A DNA stretch of 37,798 bases from a virus: UHGV virus genome UHGV-1315295; one strand, written 5' to 3'. The notes beneath the pieces were generated by a model that made no database searches, was not told the origin of the DNA, and saw nothing but the letters and a program-made list of their open reading frames with translations. This document shows positions 5,537-36,818 of this stretch, one piece after another (within the stretch, counting starts at the first letter, position 1; each line of letters begins with the position of its first letter). Made by a program: the position numbers and the translations under genes.

Positions 5537-5751
5537 TATTTACAGCAAAAATATATAAGTTAGCATTTACCTATCATTAAAATTTTATTAGATATCACGT
5601 TACTTATTACCTCGATAGCCTTTGTGCTCGACTGCATCTTCACAGGGGCAATCCGTAAAGCGCTGGCGCCTGTTAATGATGTGATGATCAATGCGCTGGC
5701 CGTAGTACTGGTCTTCGACTCAGCATTAGGCGTTTTCAAAGGAGTCGTGGC

Positions 5752-6299: not shown

Positions 6300-6308
6300 T
6301 AACACTAT

Positions 6309-6946
6309 CCACTGCGGTGAGTAGCCAGCTCACCGCGTGTGAATCCGGCTCATAACCACTGTAGCGAGTAGAACACCCTTCAGGTATGCACCCCAACCAC
6401 TGTAGTGAGTAGAACACCATTCGGGTATGCACCCCAACCACTGTAGTGAGCAACCCCCCTGCCACGATATCAACTATCCACTGTAGTGAGTAAATTGGTG
6501 ATTATCGGGGTCGCTATACACTGTAGTGAGTAAACAGGCGTTCACTGACTACAAACAACCACTATAGAGAGTGATGGAATGCTCCCTCCAGCGGATATCC
6601 ACTATGGAGAGTAAATCTTCGCTGTTTTAAACGGATATCCACTCACTACAGTGGATAGAGGTCAAGTCAGCCAATTCTGCTCTTCACAGTGGATAGTCAA
6701 CAATGAGGAGAGCGACGATAACCGCTGTAGAGAGTAGACTTAACAGAGATACCCAGTGACCGCTAACCTCTCAGCCCTTGTTTTATCTATGTTTGCAACC
6801 ACTAACATTTACTTCGCGATTTGTGCGCACTGCCTACAGTGGTTATTCTTCGGTTTCTTTTACTCACTACAGTGGATATTGCATTTCCGATAAACAAAAA
6901 GGCTCACTACAGTAGATAGTGAGCCTTTTTACTCTCTACAGTGGTT
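6309..6946. repeat. Iteron array downstream of repA (incA-like copy-control locus): about 15 copies of CCACTGTAGTGAGTA-type repeat in both orientations
   Basis: Copies at 6309-6323, 6356-6370, 6397-6411, 6438-6452, 6478-6492, 6518-6532, 6559-6573, 6599-6613, 6722-6736 (forward) and 6641-6654, 6682-6696, 6834-6846, 6861-6878, 6903-6918, 6931-6946 (reverse); includes a 41-bp tandem duplication 6356-6396/6397-6437. Confidence 0.8.
6896..6930. terminator. Bidirectional hairpin terminator at the repA 3' end, incorporating an iteron
   Basis: AAAAA-AGGCTCACTA-cagtag-TAGTGAGCCT-TTTTT: 10-bp perfect stem with A-run and T-run on either side. Confidence 0.5.
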
Positions 6947-6949
6947 GGG

Positions 6950-8005
6950 CTATTTGCGAGCCTTTGCCTTGCGCAGCTCTTCGAGAATCGCCAGTTCTTC
7001 CTTGCTCAACATGACCATTTCCCCGTCTTTTTCTTCAGGGGCAACATCGATAATGTCCTCCGGATCATCACCTGGCAAGATATCTTCTGGCTCTTCAGGC
7101 GTAGCCATAGATGGCGGCAGTGCCGAACGTAACTTCGGCCGTCTATAGTGGATGACGAAGTAGACCGAGCTGCCGCGTTTCACTTCAGTGTAATCGAGAT
7201 AGCCGATCTCTCGCAGCTGCTCCATCGCCTTCCTGACTGTCGCATTCTGGGTAATGGTGCGGCTGGTTAAGTTAAGTCTGGCGCGTAAGCGAGCCAATGA
7301 GATTGGCGCCGGGTCTGGTGGCAAACTTTCAATGAAGGTGTAGAGCGCCTGCGCGGATTCTTTTCTGGAGAGTTCGTTGATGGCCCGAAGTTGCAAAAGC
7401 ACCTTTTTGTCGAACTGGTAAAGTTCGAAAATCTTAGGATCGGCCTTCAGTTCGACCGTGTCATTCTTGGTACTGTACTTTGCCGTCTGCACAAGGTGCG
7501 TAACGTAATACTCTTCAGAGCCTTTGCTGCGGAATGAGATGGTGTTTGTGGCGATACGACTTAGAGAGCTGTCCAGGCGCTTACGTAACTTCGCGGACGA
7601 TCTGGCTGTTGGTATGCCACAAAGTCTGACGAACTCGACGAACGGCAACGTGACGGTGTCACCAACAACCTTGTGCTTGGCGAACGCGTGGATGATGCCC
7701 ACCCATGTTTTGAAATCGTTATCCATATCAAGACGAAGACCAGCAATCCTTATATCCTCGTACCCTTCGGCTTTGGCCAGAGACAGCTGTTTGAGTTCAG
7801 CGGAGGCGTCCATAGAGACCATTTGCCCCTTTCTACCCCTGGATGTCGATTTCAGCGTCGGAACGAAGAGACCAAGACGCATCAGAGCAACAGGTTGAAC
7901 TGTGTTGTTGGTGTTAGGAACTAACGTAACAACTTCGCCGGTCTTTTTGTCTGTTTCGGAAAATGCTTCGCTTATCGCAATGTTTTTATTGTCGTTTACG
8001 CTCAT
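6950..8005 (-). CDS. repA: Replication initiator RepA (P1/IncY-type iteron-binding initiator)
   Basis: 351 aa; blocks [64 protein letters not shown] match my recollection of P1 RepA; flanked on both sides by iterons. Confidence 0.8.
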
Positions 8006-8048
8006 TCCAAATGTCTCTTTTTATTCGACGGCTTGGGTGCCTTTACTG

Positions 8049-8168
8049 ATTACAGTGGATAGTAGCACCCATCACAGTGGTTATCCTACCGCCTACAGCG
8101 GTTTTTCTACTCTCCATAGTGGTTGATTTACTCTCTATAGTGGTTGTTATTCTCACTATAGTGGATAT
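8049..8168. repeat. Iteron cluster 1 upstream of repA (origin/incC-like), 6 copies
   Basis: ACAGTGGATAG, CACAGTGGTTAT, CTACAGCGGTTTT, CTCCATAGTGGTTG, CTCTATAGTGGTTG, CACTATAGTGGATA; same family as the downstream iterons. Confidence 0.75.
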
Positions 8169-8214
8169 CGATAACCTCTAAAGCCATGTGGCACAACGGT
8201 TTGCAGGGGCCGGG

Positions 8215-8273
8215 GATCTCTTTGGGTCTTTGTGGTTCTCTTTGGTTCTAACAGGGATCTGAATTACTGGATC
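8215..8273. promoter_or_regulatory. GATC cluster 1 (3 Dam sites) adjacent to iteron cluster 1
   Basis: GATC at 8215, 8256, 8270 within GGGATCTC / GGGATCTG / GGATCGAG heptamer-like units. Confidence 0.4.
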
Positions 8274-8446
8274 GAGCCTGTGTATAAAAATCAGATAATT
8301 ACAAAATCAGGCATCACTCCCCTTCTGGGGATAATGTGTGATCGAAATAAACACGCCGCAACGCAAAATTTACAATATTTCCAAGAATATCAGCCATCTG
8401 CCGCAGAAAAACAGGCTCGGAGTTATCCAGTTAAAACATTGTCTCC

Positions 8447-8551
8447 TACTCACTACAGTGGATACCGACTACTCTCCAGAGAGGTTGTTTTGCTCTTCAT
8501 AGCGGTTATTATGCTCTCTACAGTGGTTATTTTGCTCCCTATAGTGGATAG
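8447..8551. repeat. Iteron cluster 2 (5 copies), a second origin-like module
   Basis: TACTCACTACAGTGGATA, CTCTTCATAGCGGTTAT, CTCTCTACAGTGGTTAT, CTCCCTATAGTGGATAG plus one degenerate copy. Confidence 0.7.
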
Positions 8552-8590
8552 TAACCCCTTCTCAAGCCAGTAACCGCAAGCGCTGGAGAC

Positions 8591-31715: not shown

Positions 31716-32111
31716 CGGCTGCAACTCGTTGACATTGGCGGTCACAAATTGAGGATTTCTATAAGAGTCCGTTGATCGCCACTTCCCCCACCTCTCCAAC
31801 CTACCCCAGCCCAGGCGTGACAAGACATTTAAGCCAATTACAACCATAAGAAAACAAATAAATAACACGTCAACGAAAAGTCAACGCTTTCCCCTGATTT
31901 GGTCTAAAAAGTTGACGTTTTCGCAAGCCATCTCTTATACCCAAAATCCTGCGCACCAGAATCCATCTCCCTGCGACCAAAACGTCAAAAACGACTCGTG
32001 ATATCACTCAAAAACAGAAGCGCTCAGAAGCGCTCCCGTTGCGTTATATTGGGTATCTAAACAAGTTGTTTTCAGGCATAAGAAAACAAGTTAACCACCC
32101 CCACAGGAAAC

Positions 32112-32380
32112 CCAGAGACGCCATTACCCAATACACGGAGAAGAACAGCCAGAACGAAACCCCGGACAAACCCAGACAAGAACAGGAGCCGTCACAATCT
32201 CGTTTACCCACCATTACCCCGAAAGAGAGCGCAAATTCCTGAATAGCAGGGAACGCCATTACTTCATATGCGGAGAACAACTAAAGCGCCCTACTGCCAT
32301 TACCCACACTTTCATCATTTCACGTAAACGAAGAGAAAAGCGCACCTGCCATTACTCCATACACGGAGAAGAACAATCAC
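32112..32380. repeat. Four direct repeats of a ~25-bp unit GCCATTACyy.ATAyrCGGAGAAGAACA in a T-poor noncoding tract
   Basis: Copies start near 32112, 32253, 32290, 32344. Confidence 0.5.
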
Positions 32381-32670
32381 CAAAACGACGAGAACAACCC
32401 AGACGAAAACACAGAGAAGAACCACCTCAAGAAGAACGAAACCACATACGCCGGTAGAGAGTACAAACCACCCATTTCACCCACAGGAATAGTCGCCGTA
32501 TTGAGCGTTATCAGAGAGAAGGTTTATGCCCACATAAGAGAGAAAATTCGTGGGAGGTATAAGTGGGAAGGGAAGGAGGGGTATCGCTACTTTTTCCGCA
32601 TAAATTCAAGCCATAGTTTTCGTCCCCCGTAACGTCCCTTTCCACCCCTTCGGTCAGCCTTCGGGCCATC

Positions 32671-32850
32671 CAGGGAAAAGGCCATGTCCCTTTTCAGAAA
32701 CGGGAGCGTCGCCGCAGGGAAAAGGCTGGAGGTTTTCAGGGAAACGGTGGGAATCCCGCTATACGAACCGGGAAAAGGCTGGCTGCCGGTCGGGAAACGG
32801 GTACATCCCGGTACAGAGTGAGGGACGACTGCGAGAGCGGTGCGGGAAAT
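32671..32850. repeat. Six direct copies of C(A/C)GGGAAA(A/C)GG-type motif in GC-rich noncoding DNA
   Basis: Copies at 32671, 32715, 32737, 32768, 32791, 32843; related copies in other intergenic regions. Confidence 0.5.
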
Positions 32851-33185
32851 CTTCGGGAGTGCGCCTTGCTCTTCGCTCGCCTGAAAATCGCGAGGGAGTG
32901 TCGTTCCCTCTCGTGCAGCTGCTGAACTCCATTCTGCCAGACCATCCTCGGGTCTCAAGCGATTTCAGTAGGTTTTCGGGGAGAAGAAAATTCTGCCCAC
33001 CAGCCCTGCGGCGCGCGTAGAGCAGAATATCGTAAATACTGGTTCCCGTGTCGTTCCCGGATACTCACTACCCAGCCTGGCTTTCCCGACATAAAATCCT
33101 TTTTCGCCTTTGTCTTATTGCGATAATAACACCAACAAGTAAACAACATGTTTAGACGTTATATAAACGAAGTGAGGATGAAGAG

Positions 33186-33404
33186 ATGATTAAGATGCCT
33201 GTGACGGTTGAGGTGTGGGGCGTGGATTCCCTGGCTGAGTGTCTGAATGCAGTAGGGCCGGAGTTGTACCGCAAGTTGTGGTCGTTCGTCCCGGCAGAAG
33301 GGGAATCGCCCAAAGGGAAGGATATCTGGCACCTGCTGAGTGAAGATGAAAAGCGGGAGCTGGTGGGCGCGGTACACAGCGAGTTCCCGGACGACGAAGA
33401 TTAA
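33186..33404 (+). CDS. Hypothetical small acidic protein (72 aa)
   Basis: ATG 33186 with GAGGATGAAGAG RBS region. Confidence 0.45.
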   Translation: MIKMPVTVEVWGVDSLAECLNAVGPELYRKLWSFVPAEGESPKGKDIWHLLSEDEKRELVGAVHSEFPDDED

Positions 33405-33408
33405 GAGT

Positions 33409-33434
33409 GAGGCCACCAGCACGGTGGCTTTTGT
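33409..33434 (+). terminator. Rho-independent terminator
   Basis: GAGGCCACC-agcac-GGTGGCT followed by TTTTGT. Confidence 0.55.
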
Positions 33435-33516
33435 CGCTATTAACCTCCGGGGCAGCGCAGCACCGTAACGATATACTTTGTGGCCGTTTTCTTACTGGTA
33501 TTGTTTACGCAATTCA

Positions 33517-33533
33517 GAAAACAACATGTTTAA
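33517..33533. promoter_or_regulatory. Palindrome GAAAACAACATGTTTAA (family 2) overlapping the RBS of gene 33544
   Basis: Embedded in conserved block TTTACGCAATTCAGAAAACAACATGTTTAAGG. Confidence 0.4.
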
Positions 33534-33543
33534 GGATTGCTTT

Positions 33544-33873
33544 ATGTTTGCAAATATCGACATCAACCAAATCAAGAAAATGACTCAAAAAGAGTTTGAC
33601 CAGTTTTATGAGTTAGAAGGTTGGTCTTCCACGCTGATCAATTCGCGCTGGGTGCTTGAGCTGATGACTCGTGATGATGCTCCTGCTTTGATTATTTGCG
33701 ACATGGGTGAAGATGCTGACTTTATGGATATGAGCGAATTTTGTGTGGACACATACAACCGCAGCCAGAAGTACTACTTCACATGCGATAGCGAGAATGA
33801 CGTGATTTCTAAGCTCTATCTTCACCTTGTCCAGCATTGGGACGTGCAGGAATTCCTTGAGTTATTCGCGTAA
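33544..33873 (+). CDS. Hypothetical small acidic protein (109 aa)
   Basis: ATG 33544 with AAGGA RBS. Confidence 0.45.
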   Translation: MFANIDINQIKKMTQKEFDQFYELEGWSSTLINSRWVLELMTRDDAPALIICDMGEDADFMDMSEFCVDTYNRSQKYYFTCDSENDVISKLYLHLVQHWDVQEFLELFA

Positions 33874-34007
33874 GCCCAACCAAAGCCAGCACCGCCTGCT
33901 GGCTTAACTTCTCTGTAGCCGCAGGGAAGAACCACCTTTAGATAATTCATGTGCCTGAGCAATATGCTTTGTAGCCGTTTTTACACTGGTATTATTTACG
34001 CCATTGA

Positions 34008-34024
34008 GAAAACAATTTGTTTAC
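34008..34024. promoter_or_regulatory. Palindrome GAAAACAATTTGTTTAC (family 2) upstream of gene 34034
   Basis: Embedded in TTTACGCCATTGAGAAAACAATTTGTTTACGG, ~80% identical to 33481-33540. Confidence 0.4.
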
Positions 34025-34033
34025 GGAGTGGTG

Positions 34034-34345
34034 ATGAATACTTCATTGGTGCTGAGTCTTGCTGAAGGCCAGGAGAGAAAAGAAAAACCAACCTTAATGG
34101 GGCATCTCACATTGCTGGATATCGTAGCGAATGGGACTTCTATCCGTCTGTTTCGTGAAAAAGCCATTACCTTCGACGCGGGCAATTTTACGCGCTATGT
34201 GATGGTAGTTCGTCGCGAGCGTGGAAGAGGGTGGATGTCGGTCCAGAAAATGTGGCCAGAGGACCAGCTTGAACTGGCGCTGATGGAAGCCAACCGTGTC
34301 GCCCAACAAGAGATCCAACGAGCGTCTGTTCAGGCGGTAGCTTAA
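34034..34345 (+). CDS. Hypothetical protein (103 aa)
   Basis: ATG 34034, GGAGTGGTG RBS. Confidence 0.45.
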   Translation: MNTSLVLSLAEGQERKEKPTLMGHLTLLDIVANGTSIRLFREKAITFDAGNFTRYVMVVRRERGRGWMSVQKMWPEDQLELALMEANRVAQQEIQRASVQAVA

Positions 34346-34379
34346 ACATGTGCAAGCAGTAGTTAGTCGAATGTACGAC

Positions 34380-34407
34380 AGCCCCGCCAATCCTTCGGGG
34401 CTTTTTT
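34380..34407 (+). terminator. Rho-independent terminator
   Basis: AGCCCCG-ccaatcctt-CGGGGCT followed by TTTTTTG. Confidence 0.65.
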
Positions 34408-34466
34408 GTATTGTAAGTACTTACTTATGATAATAAAATTAAAAATTAAACACTAAGGAGAGTGAA

Positions 34467-34862
34467 ATGACCGTTAAACGCGAAAATCTGACCCTGGATA
34501 TGTATTATGCATCAGAGACGGAAAATGGAGACAAAGTTGCAAAAATTACAATTGTGCTACGCGATAATACCTCCGGCGAAGAAGTTCACACCAGTACCTT
34601 AACTCGCACCGGCGAGGCCACAAAGGGGAAATATTCGGTGCGTTACCAAAGCATCAGTAATGCTTCTGACCCTTTACTGATAAAACTGGAAACTCATTTC
34701 CGTGGCGCGGATCAGACGTTGTTTGAAAATTTGATGAAAAAGGTCGATGCGGTTTATACATCGAGTTTAAATACCAATAGTACCTGGATGGGACAACACG
34801 GTCTGCGAATAATCTCCGGCGAAAAGATCGACACCATTGTCCCTGAAAGCGTATTCGCTTAA
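34467..34862 (+). CDS. Hypothetical protein (131 aa)
   Basis: ATG 34467 with AAGGAGAG RBS. Confidence 0.5.
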   Translation: MTVKRENLTLDMYYASETENGDKVAKITIVLRDNTSGEEVHTSTLTRTGEATKGKYSVRYQSISNASDPLLIKLETHFRGADQTLFENLMKKVDAVYTSSLNTNSTWMGQHGLRIISGEKIDTIVPESVFA

Positions 34863-34871
34863 TCCTCTTTG

Positions 34872-34899
34872 AATGGCGCGTACCCCGCGCCATTTTCTT
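34872..34899 (+). terminator. Rho-independent terminator
   Basis: AATGGCGCG-taccc-CGCGCCATT followed by TTCTT. Confidence 0.5.
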
Positions 34900-34979
34900 A
34901 TGCCCGATAACAATTTGTTTTCTGCCTTATCTGATTTGTGAAAATGATTTCACTGAAGCAACTTAATAAGGAAACCATC

Positions 34980-35354
34980 ATGGGGCTTGATATCTACATC
35001 GAGACGCAGCCAAAAAACGATCTGAATAACGAGGCATCCAGAAAGCAGGTTGCTTACTTCCGTAAGTTCAATGCGCTCGTTGGGTGGATGGAGCGCAACG
35101 TAGGTGAAGTCGAAAATTGTGAGCTTTTAGAATTAACGATGAATGACATTTGTTTTCTGAAGGCTCATTTGATGCACATAAACGAAAGTAATTGCGAAGA
35201 GTACTTGCCTACCCAGGAAGGTTTTTTCTTCGGCAGTCAGGAGTACGATGAAGGTTACTGGCATGACGTGGGGGAGTTGAAAGAGATTGTGGAAGATCTG
35301 ATTAAGAACCACGACTTTCACAATAATAGACTGACCTTCTGCGCCTGGTGGTAA
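34980..35354 (+). CDS. Hypothetical acidic protein (124 aa)
   Basis: ATG 34980 with AAGGA RBS. Confidence 0.45.
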   Translation: MGLDIYIETQPKNDLNNEASRKQVAYFRKFNALVGWMERNVGEVENCELLELTMNDICFLKAHLMHINESNCEEYLPTQEGFFFGSQEYDEGYWHDVGELKEIVEDLIKNHDFHNNRLTFCAWW

Positions 35355-35356
35355 AT

Positions 35357-35500
35357 ATGGGCGATTTCAAGAAACGCCTGAAGGAGAGAGCCGAGATGGT
35401 CAGAAAGCGAAACGCCTCTTCTGTCATAAGATACGCAAGGCAGTTTAGTCGCAACAACAAATCAGTTGAGGAAAAGATCCTTAGCGTAATCGGGCGATAA
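35357..35500 (+). CDS. Possible small basic protein (47 aa)
   Basis: ATG 35357, GGTGG 6 nt upstream; below the ORF-track length cutoff. Confidence 0.25.
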   Translation: MGDFKKRLKERAEMVRKRNASSVIRYARQFSRNNKSVEEKILSVIGR

Positions 35501-35704
35501 TTATTAAGGCCACCAGCATTGGTGGCCTTAAATGACCATCCTGTTTCCCGCAGGCTAAAAACACCAACCTCTTACCTCCAGGCAACCGACAAACCCACCT
35601 GTTCCCGTCCGGCTACCGCAACTTTCCACTTTGACGCCTTATTCGTACAACGATAATTAACACCAACAAGAAAACAATTTGTTATTTACGATAAGGAATT
35701 AATC

Positions 35705-36187
35705 ATGAATTTTATCGCTACTGTAAACGCACCCGCACATGGCAATATCGCTGTAACGTTCTCTGATATTGAAAAACGAGTACTTGGTGCATGGCGCGAC
35801 AATGAGACGGTAGAACTGTCAGCACAAGAAAAATGCATTATTGCACGCGACATCATTTGCAATCGTCGTTACTCACGGGTAATTGAGAAAGCGTATGTCG
35901 CAAATTCTGGCTTCGGAACATTTGTCTTCCCGGTACGCTCCGGGCGATTCTGCCAGTCCAAGCTGATTGAGTTCGCTACGCAGATTTCTGTCTGGATTAA
36001 AACTCAATCGTCGTTCAAATTTTCCGACGATGAAGCAGTATCGCAGGGGATGCGGATCGCCAACAATGCAATAAAATGCAAAAACATTACGTATGCCGCT
36101 GGCGTTGACACATGGAAACTGTTTTGCGCTAACTTTATGCTGAATGTATACGCAAGCAACCGCATCCACATCCTTGATGGCGTGTAA
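35705..36187 (+). CDS. Hypothetical protein (160 aa)
   Basis: ATG 35705 with AAGGA RBS. Confidence 0.5.
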   Translation: MNFIATVNAPAHGNIAVTFSDIEKRVLGAWRDNETVELSAQEKCIIARDIICNRRYSRVIEKAYVANSGFGTFVFPVRSGRFCQSKLIEFATQISVWIKTQSSFKFSDDEAVSQGMRIANNAIKCKNITYAAGVDTWKLFCANFMLNVYASNRIHILDGV

Positions 36188-36190
36188 CTG

Positions 36191-36219
36191 AGAAGAGGGC
36201 CAGAAACGGCCCTTTCTCT
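36191..36219 (+). terminator. Hairpin terminator
   Basis: GAGGGCC-agaaac-GGCCCT followed by TTCTCTA. Confidence 0.45.
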
Positions 36220-36783
36220 ATAGCCACCAGCTGCCGCAGGGAAATTTTCAGAAACGGCGAGGAACGCATTCATGAGCCGACGGGAAACGGCCAAGATTTT
36301 TTCGGGAAACGGCGGGGGTCGCCTTTATGTAGAAAACTGAGCGGGAGAAACCCGGAATCGCGCCAGAAATTGCGTAGCGGCGCTGGGGTAGCGCTGGTGG
36401 GGGTTTCAGCCCCTGGGCCATCCAGATAGCTTTCGCTATGTGATTATGTGAATCCGTGGGTAAATCACTGTAAGCGCGTACACGTTGCCCAACGTGGCAA
36501 TCATATGCGAGCGGATACAAAACAACACAAAGAGCCGATCCGCGCCGACAAATAAACGCGGATCACATAGCAAGACTAAAAGCCAATGATTAACCATACT
36601 CTATAGCGCAATATAACGCGTTTTAAGCGCGTTAATGTGTTAAGTAATGGGTATAGTACTAACAAGGATATAAAAGCGCGTCTATGGCGTTATTTTGGTG
36701 CTTATTTTTATGTTGTTGAAGCGAGTTAAAGACAATAAAAAACGCGCCAATGATGGCGCGTTATGGTGGGAGTATTGGAAACG

Positions 36784-36818
36784 AAAAAAGCGCCCATAGT
36801 GGGCGCTCGATTTTATTT
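36784..36818. terminator. Bidirectional hairpin terminator
   Basis: AAAAA-AGCGCCCA-tag-TGGGCGCT-CGATTTTATTT: A-run and T-run on opposite sides; ends the minus-strand gene 36813-37043. Confidence 0.5.

Follow-up and report, generated by a model that had tools for sequence, protein, structure and literature searches.

The virus genome UHGV-1315295, a stretch of 37,798 nucleotides (nt) that we call the window and to whose whole length all coordinates refer, carries repeated copies of a short motif, GGGAAAMGG, in DNA without genes, and the question that this raises is what the copies are for. By similarity the window is a phage-plasmid of the SSU5/pHCM2/pMT1 type, a common family that includes plasmids of Salmonella Typhi, Yersinia pestis and clinical Klebsiella, and for which lytic replication and early-gene control are largely unknown. 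Two gene-free gaps are involved, gap A (31716–33185; 1.47 kb) and gap B (36188–36812; ~0.6 kb); each presents an ordered array of this one motif and is thus an obvious candidate control region. No description of GGGAAAMGG arrays was found in the literature searched.

Two ordered arrays of one motif

Seven exact matches to GGGAAAMGG are present in the window, all on the + strand (A1 to A5, B2 and B3 in Table 1), where 0.55 are expected. Among 100 shuffled versions of the window the count never reached seven, with a maximum of three. A position-weight matrix derived from relatives scores the seven copies at 16.8–22.6 and the rest of the window at 9.1 or less. The nearest complete relative, Escherichia fergusonii plasmid pRHB41-C15_2 (107 kb; 99.6% over 32500–33180), also has seven exact motifs: five in gap A, one in gap B and one stray.

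This distribution is narrower than that given in the original prediction, which had described the motif in several intergenic regions and in both orientations. Five of its six tandem copies are full motifs, but the sixth (A6) is partial and unconserved, and because its conservation is only 0.1–0.2 in 68 relatives it is probably not functional. Similarly, among the related copies that it listed, those at 36282 and 36304 carry the full motif, but those at 33918 and 36238 share only GGGAA of the 9-mer. The two inverted copies score 3.9 (35540 region) and 8.5 (35606), and shuffled sequences yield 5.8 matches scoring at least 8; the former is a small conserved palindrome, CCTG-TTTCCCG-CAGG, and the latter is unconserved. 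As the inverted copies are at background and the 33918 and 36238 copies lack the 9-mer, the full motif is confined to two intergenic regions and one orientation.

The sequences at 33918 and 36238 do have a distinct module in common, CTCTRTAGCC..GCCGCAGGGAA, and GCCGCAGGGAA is also found at 32711, where it opens copy A2. The earlier recognition of a shared block, CTCTRTAGCC..GCAGGGAA, following terminators at 33911 and 36216 was correct, and these are duplicated intergenic modules: CTCTGTAGCC+GCAGGGAA at 33911–33928 matches CTCTATAGCC[ACCAGCTGCC]GCAGGGAA at 36216–36243 (repeat family D14). The first module is conserved in 28 unique relatives that have the gene, although the whole gap is nearly invariant there and this conservation therefore carries little weight.

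The basic unit of the arrays spans about 44 bases and contains two sites, GCCGCA-GGGAAAAGGC ... TTTTCA-GGGAAACGG. The first site lies between short complements (e.g. GGCC..GGCC, GCC..GGC or GCCG..CGGC), and the second lies exactly 22 bases downstream and is usually preceded by TTTTC. Gap A has the units A1–A1b, A2–A3 and A4–A5, its full copies being spaced 44, 22, 31 and 22 bases from start to start, and gap B has B1–B1b, which is shortened, and B2–B3. Units A2–A3 and B2–B3 are 71% identical over 41 bases (repeat family D7), and the 22-bp spacing in A2–A3, A4–A5 and B2–B3 makes these direct repeats like iterons of ~21–22 bp. The two arrays are separated by a 3.5-kb cluster of small genes. Gap B is bordered by the end of a + strand gene encoding a protein of 160 amino acids (aa) and by the ends of - strand genes, such that the flanking units are convergent.

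Table 1. Positions of the arrays, their component sites and neighbouring features in the window.
Feature	Positions	Strand	Remarks
Extended -10 (TTGCGTTATA), then operator palindrome AAACAAGTTGTTT	32039..32071	+	Facing gap A; conserved in 66 unique relatives
G-rich block GGTATAAGTGGGAAGGGAAGGAGGGGTATCGC	32556..32587	+	Nearly invariant (conservation mostly 0.9–1.0); ~85 bases before array
Gap A array	32664..32810	+	A1 32673–32681, A2 32717–32725, A3 32739–32747, A4 32770–32778, A5 32792–32800
Gap A half copy TTTTCAGAAACGGG	32691–32704	+	
A6, partial copy GGGAAATCT	32844..32852	+	
Sigma-70-like promoter (TTGAGA, 16 nt, TG-n-CAGAAT)	32931..32958	-	Consensus match only; would transcribe array - strand
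Small-gene promoter-operator modules	33118–33153, 33495–33531, 33986–34022, 34900–34921, 35650–35683	+	
Post-terminator module CTCTGTAGCCGCAGGGAAGAAC	33911..33932	+	Related to 36216–36246 by a 10-base indel
Gap B array	36216..36349	+	Directly 3' of hairpin ending the 160-aa gene
Chi complement CCACCAGC	36224–36231		Preceded by CTCTATAGCC, the first element of the gap B array
B1 GCCGCAGGGAAA	36233–36244	+	
B1b TTTTCAGAAACGG	36245–36257	+	
B2 GGGAAACGG	36282–36290	+	
B3 GGGAAACGG	36304–36312	+	Followed by GCCTTTATGTAGAAAAC
B4 GCGGGAGAA	36341–36349	+	
Chi	36393..36400	+	Brackets gap B array with inverted Chi 36224–36231; in most, not all lineages

Conservation within one family of phage-plasmids

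Relatives of the window are numerous. The Escherichia phages CMS-2020a, PhiR41_1 and Cyrano match the region at ~91% and Salmonella phage SSU5 at 80%, and about 770 plasmid records match (S. Typhi pHCM2-type, Y. pestis pMT1, and many from Klebsiella, Enterobacter and E. coli); among 5426 complete E. coli genomes, 239 carry the gaps. An initial collection of viral loci had been gathered by means of the motif and is thus biased, and we assembled an unbiased set of 83 loci by way of the neighbouring 160-aa protein (66–99% identical among loci).

Motif copies are present at matching positions in the homologous gaps of related genomes. Homologous gap A copies were found in all nine hand-picked relatives that possess this gap, and the whole 1.47 kb is conserved; in the unbiased relatives gap A contains between one and five exact copies, A3 and A4 being the best conserved and A5 variable. 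Core columns are better conserved than the other array columns both in gap A (0.86 vs 0.68; permutation p 0.001) and in gap B (0.98 vs 0.81; permutation p 0.003), with p values overall between 0.001 and 0.005. In gap B the boxes CCACCAGCTGCCGCAGGGAA, TTTCAGAAACGGC, CCGAnGGGAAACGGCCA and TTTTCGGGAAACGGC are 90–100% conserved and the spacers 30–50%. Between B2 and B3 the 13 bases of spacer differ among relatives but show no indel in 59 sequences, with the other spacers varying by 1–8 bases. Two variants concern the repeat period itself. Locus L001 lacks ~22 bases, or one period, between A1b and A2. At 5569–5610 of L177 (IMG/VR contig 2922289487_000003) the gap B pair is still spaced by 22 bases but has GGGGAAAGG at both sites in place of GGGAAACGG, and gap A of the same contig (L075) retains the usual motif; this paired change reflects gene conversion inside the pair or else an altered specificity.

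We conclude that the arrays are real, under selection, and specific to the SSU5/pHCM2/pMT1-type family. The motif does not behave as a mobile intergenic repeat, as had been proposed at the outset, nor as one of the repetitive extragenic palindromic (REP), enterobacterial repetitive intergenic consensus (ERIC) or miniature inverted-repeat transposable element (MITE) kinds, being confined to two gaps, which are syntenic, in one family of elements; six of the seven copies in the 107-kb relative are in these gaps. All 241 motif places in E. coli are on plasmids, with no chromosomal copies in the 5426 genomes, and the motif pair occurs in 84 viral loci, of which 70 are homologous, the other 14 being unrelated iteron arrays, simple repeats and coding sequence.

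A repeated coding sequence (Gly-Lys-Arg, AGG and CGG both encoding Arg) was also rejected, since the copies fall in three frames (0, 2, 0, 1, 2) and the lengths of indels in relatives are not divisible by three. The Prokaryotic Genome Annotation Pipeline (PGAP) places no gene in the gap A array of relatives lacking the SSU5-type insertion, and older phage records disagree as to strand. Inspection by eye alone led us to drop RfaH ops sites, FtsK-orienting polar sequences (KOPS), NF-kB-like sites and response-regulator boxes.

Gene content between the arrays differs among relatives. In Y. pestis CO92 pMT1 (L009 4416–4874) IS1541 occupies the place of gap A and several small genes are gone; the same plasmid retains gap B with its array, the 160-aa gene and an FljA-like gene. 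Relatives of the Enterobacter, SSU5 and S. Typhi lineages have an additional 80-aa - strand gene to the right of the gap A array (L006 5490–5732, L002 7131–7373), which has no Pfam match and replaces window positions 32840–33080, including the - strand promoter-like site. The region of that site (32931–32958) is conserved in relatives without the SSU5-type insertion.

What the arrays may bind

Given this conservation across hundreds of related plasmids, the arrays are almost certainly docking sites for one protein, on either DNA or RNA. The original prediction suggested the binding site of a second regulator, and this is upheld insofar as the repeats are phased and direct, are conserved above their spacers, and are distinct from both the AAACAAnnTGTTT operator and the RepA iterons, although the binder was not found. 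We tentatively favour the interpretation that they are cis-acting clusters of sites for one element-encoded factor other than RepA, bound in an iteron-like manner on double-stranded DNA, because the core is short and fixed, the two-turn spacing is invariant, the orientation is uniform, there are two clusters, RNA structure is lacking, and gap B is convergent. From such features of the sequence we infer that a protein binds, that its target is DNA rather than RNA and that the arrays act jointly, as well as what they may control. The unit would be a pair of 9-bp sites 22 bp apart, i.e. two helical turns; gap A has three such units and gap B two, of which one is truncated, and all of them have the same direction and together bracket the 3.5-kb operator-controlled small-gene cluster. 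By analogy with P1 incC/incA, F ori2/incC and P4 ori/crr, both arrays may be bound cooperatively and are possibly bridged by the same protein, and once bound they could act on a second (lytic) origin or else on how the bracketed genes are expressed.

The plasmid's own initiator is not this factor. The repA gene (6950–8005, - strand) encodes an IncFIB/P1-type plasmid initiator, and the RepA iterons, ATCCACTGTAGTGAGTA, have no likeness to GGGAAAMGG and are ~25 kb away. About 20 of them form two clusters flanking repA (6300–6960 and 8040–8560), in both orientations and with 40–41-bp and 21-bp spacings. In favour of the iteron-like interpretation, perfect 22-bp tandem iterons opening with GGGAAAAGG are present in two unrelated viral contigs (L080 8442–8600, GGGAAAAGGTTACCACGCACAA; L027 1–120, GGGAAAAGGTCCCTAGGCCCTG), and these arrays are unrelated to the window in sequence context.

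The distances of 22, 31, 33/34 and 44 bp all lie within 0.25 turn of whole helical turns, which favours binding to DNA, although this argument is statistically weak as there are few independent distances. Several observations weigh against such binding. The conserved part of each site (~9–13 bp) is shorter than classical iterons of 17–22 bp. No DnaA box was seen by eye, though no scan was run, and GC skew falls monotonically over the whole plasmid with no local origin signal; an AT-rich stretch is located at 36560–36740. Neither the binding protein nor any initiator-like protein was identified among the neighbours searched: the 160-aa protein next to gap B gives a good model (predicted local distance difference test score, pLDDT, 83) that matched no known fold and has no recognisable DNA-binding fold, and searches of nine neighbouring proteins against Pfam, PHROGs, NCBIfam and PDB sequences returned nothing informative. 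Moreover, a promoter directed into gap A, the sense orientation of the copies, and a nearby protein with an RNA-binding fold would also fit an RNA target.

The main alternative explanation, which we regard as possible but doubtful, is that the motif acts in RNA, with the gap A and gap B transcripts carrying repeated docking sites for an RNA-binding protein. Gap A would correspond to a ~1-kb non-coding RNA or leader made from the operator-controlled promoter at about 32040, and gap B would be reached by transcripts of the 160-aa gene that run through its weak terminator; the binder could be an FljA-family protein or host CsrA, with one dimer per 22-nt pair, and the RNA would serve as a sponge or a regulated leader. 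The transcriptional context is favourable. Five small + strand genes are each preceded by an extended -10 (TGCGATAAT or TGGTATTAT) and, ~10–13 bases on, the palindrome AAACAAnnTGTTT, presumably the operator of a shared repressor, and the module facing gap A is a sixth copy with the same architecture. Because this conserved promoter faces gap A and no + strand terminator is predicted before 33404, none thus falling within gap A, the gap is probably transcribed. Every motif copy is sense to local transcription, and GGGA is biased to the + strand, with 15 vs 6 occurrences in 32540–32990 and 4 vs 0 in gap B.

No known RNA family was recovered from Rfam, CsrB, CsrC and Rsm giving no match either at gathering score or at E up to 5, and no stable fold was detected, the z scores relative to shuffles being +0.4, +1.6 and +1.1 and positive on both strands. 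Complements of 3–4 bp flank only 4–5 of the 7 copies, the motif is not displayed by any consistent hairpin, and the stems that flank it are without covariation. RNAalifold analysis of 59 gap B sequences identified a single compensatory G-C/C-G pair in a hairpin around B1/B1b, but this pair is broken in 9 of the 59. The sequence CAGGGA resembles CsrA sites, but CsrA does not need a strictly fixed 22-nt spacing.

A more specific version invokes FljA, which has been reported to repress translation of fliC mRNA (PMC2652032; bioRxiv 10.1101/2025.10.27.684867). An FljA-family gene (PF03614, E 6.7e-95) lies on the - strand 1.3–1.9 kb from gap B, just past the right end of the window in relatives, and was found in every related locus of sufficient length, among those examined, except L140. 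The phage-plasmid proteins are ~35% identical to chromosomal FljA and are modelled as two Hfq-like (Sm) domains in tandem. The leader of host flagellin carries a similar GCCGAMGGG..GGAAAC element, and when the E. coli fliC leader was compared with the whole window, B2 gave the best local match, with a common 12-mer, TGAGCCGACGGG. To pursue this, we drew on 120 metagenome loci and searched with a profile. The Smith-Waterman score of the fliC–B2 match was equalled by 17 of 100 shuffled leaders and is therefore not significant, and a profile of 20 distinct enterobacterial fliC leaders (nhmmer) placed gap B seventh at E 5.6; for both reasons the link between fliC and the arrays is a lead rather than a finding. 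Moreover, the FljA-like gene lies on the other strand and is present in essentially every relative examined, such that co-occurrence with gap B is uninformative, and we found no independent context for it, the chromosomal match being a copy of the same element that is integrated or degraded.

Two side observations concern the same leader. Over 36272–36294 (B1b–B2) the 5' end of the K-12 fliC leader (L182) shares, in addition to TGAGCCGACGGG, the upstream ACGGCGA and the downstream AAAC, and a C/A variant of CCGAMGGG occurs also in other enterobacterial fliC leaders. The hairpin that ends the 160-aa gene (36196–36215) has a motif-like loop, GGGCC-AGAAAC-GGCCC here and GGGGC-TGGAAAC-GCCCC in other lineages, and is similar to a hairpin in the E. 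coli fliC leader, GGG-UGGAAA-CCC.

Taken to its conclusion, this version would make the arrays RNA operators of the element's tandem-Hfq-like FljA-family protein, which would act as a ring-forming, multi-site reader of GGGAAAMGG/U-tract units in the transcripts of both gaps, an arrangement that we liken to TRAP and CsrA, both of which read repeated triplets. We consider it unlikely; if true, control of early small genes in the phage-plasmid would be coupled to repression of host flagellin, and the arrays would represent a new viral ribonucleoprotein switch and a native target for the widespread FljA family.

The arrays could also be a passive by-product of how this region evolves, as small-gene cassettes with copied and recombined regulatory modules resembling the promoter early stem-loop (PeSL) type, the motif having no binding role. 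Duplication is seen here: different genes share duplicate promoter-operator modules and upstream blocks of 69 nt (repeat families D2 and D3), CTCTRTAGCC..GCAGGGAA follows two terminators, CCACCAGCTGCCG is present in gap C of other lineages, and gene content between the arrays varies. But duplication alone accounts neither for near-invariant 9-base cores amid diverging spacers, nor for pair spacing free of indels in 59 sequences or the keeping of the gap B array in pMT1. As the cores are far better conserved than the spacers, we judge this explanation unlikely and give it little credence.

A packaging signal of the pac or cosB kind, in which the arrays would be sites for the terminase small subunit, is highly improbable: clustered short repeats are typical of such sites and the - strand reading CCGTTTCCC presumably has CGTTTCC in common with the lambda R sites, but the putative small subunit and TerL genes are ~10 kb off in relatives, TerL is of the Terminase_6N (T4-like N-terminal) and not the lambda GpA type, nothing like Nu1 was matched by the small subunit, which is unassigned, none of the phage records or contigs starts at the arrays, and two arrays 3.5 kb apart would not be expected.

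Neighbouring signals and comparison with known systems

The gaps and their surroundings carry several other features. The G-rich block upstream of the gap A array has four G-runs in ~30 bases, and by eye a part of it, GGGAAGGG, fits the consensus of the FtsK KOPS. The left part of gap A (32090–32500, ~400 bases) is A/C-rich (A 0.38, C 0.31, G 0.18, T 0.13), with AT skew up to +0.62, and GCCATTACnnnATAyrCGGAGAAsAAC occurs three times in gap A, at 32120, 32255 and 32348. Chi (GCTGGTGG) is present 13 times in the window, where 1.0 is expected, and six of these are within 32997–36400; the inverted Chi at the start of the gap B array belongs to an invariant box, and two further copies are in terminator stems, GGCCACCAGCAnnGGTGGCC (33413 and 35510).

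Of the systems with which the arrays can be compared, the paired iteron clusters found on low-copy plasmids and on phage-plasmids, P1 incC/incA and F ori2/incC, bear on the favoured iteron-like interpretation. They have in common with the arrays same-orientation repeats ~22 bp apart, two clusters a few kb apart bracketing genes, and a phage-plasmid setting; here, however, the core is only 9–13 bp, no initiator gene is recognised between the arrays, neither a DnaA box (looked for by eye) nor an unwinding element was found, and the plasmid's own RepA iterons are of another sequence. Phage P4 has one octamer in two clusters, ori and crr, that are 4.5 kb apart and both needed in cis, and the organisation of one short repeat in two separate clusters is alike, although in the window there is no adjacent alpha-type primase-helicase and all copies are direct.

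The CsrB/RsmZ sponge RNAs have many GGA motifs on one strand at dimer-compatible spacing, as here, where a promoter is upstream of gap A, but the motif of the window is fixed as GGGAAAMGG, whereas theirs is A(N)GGA in loops, and the window has no Rfam match, conserved hairpins or terminator there. With FljA and the fliC leader the arrays share a nearby FljA-family gene, 12 bases in the B2 flank and a loop-like GRAAAC, although the sequence similarity is not significant and the element proteins are only ~35% identical to chromosomal FljA. Finally, PeSL-type modules are repeated around the small early genes of T4-like phages. Like the intergenic modules described here they combine a promoter and a stem-loop, are repeated between small genes of unknown function and lie in a variable region, but the GGGAAAMGG sites form multi-copy clusters at the edges of the region rather than one module per gene.

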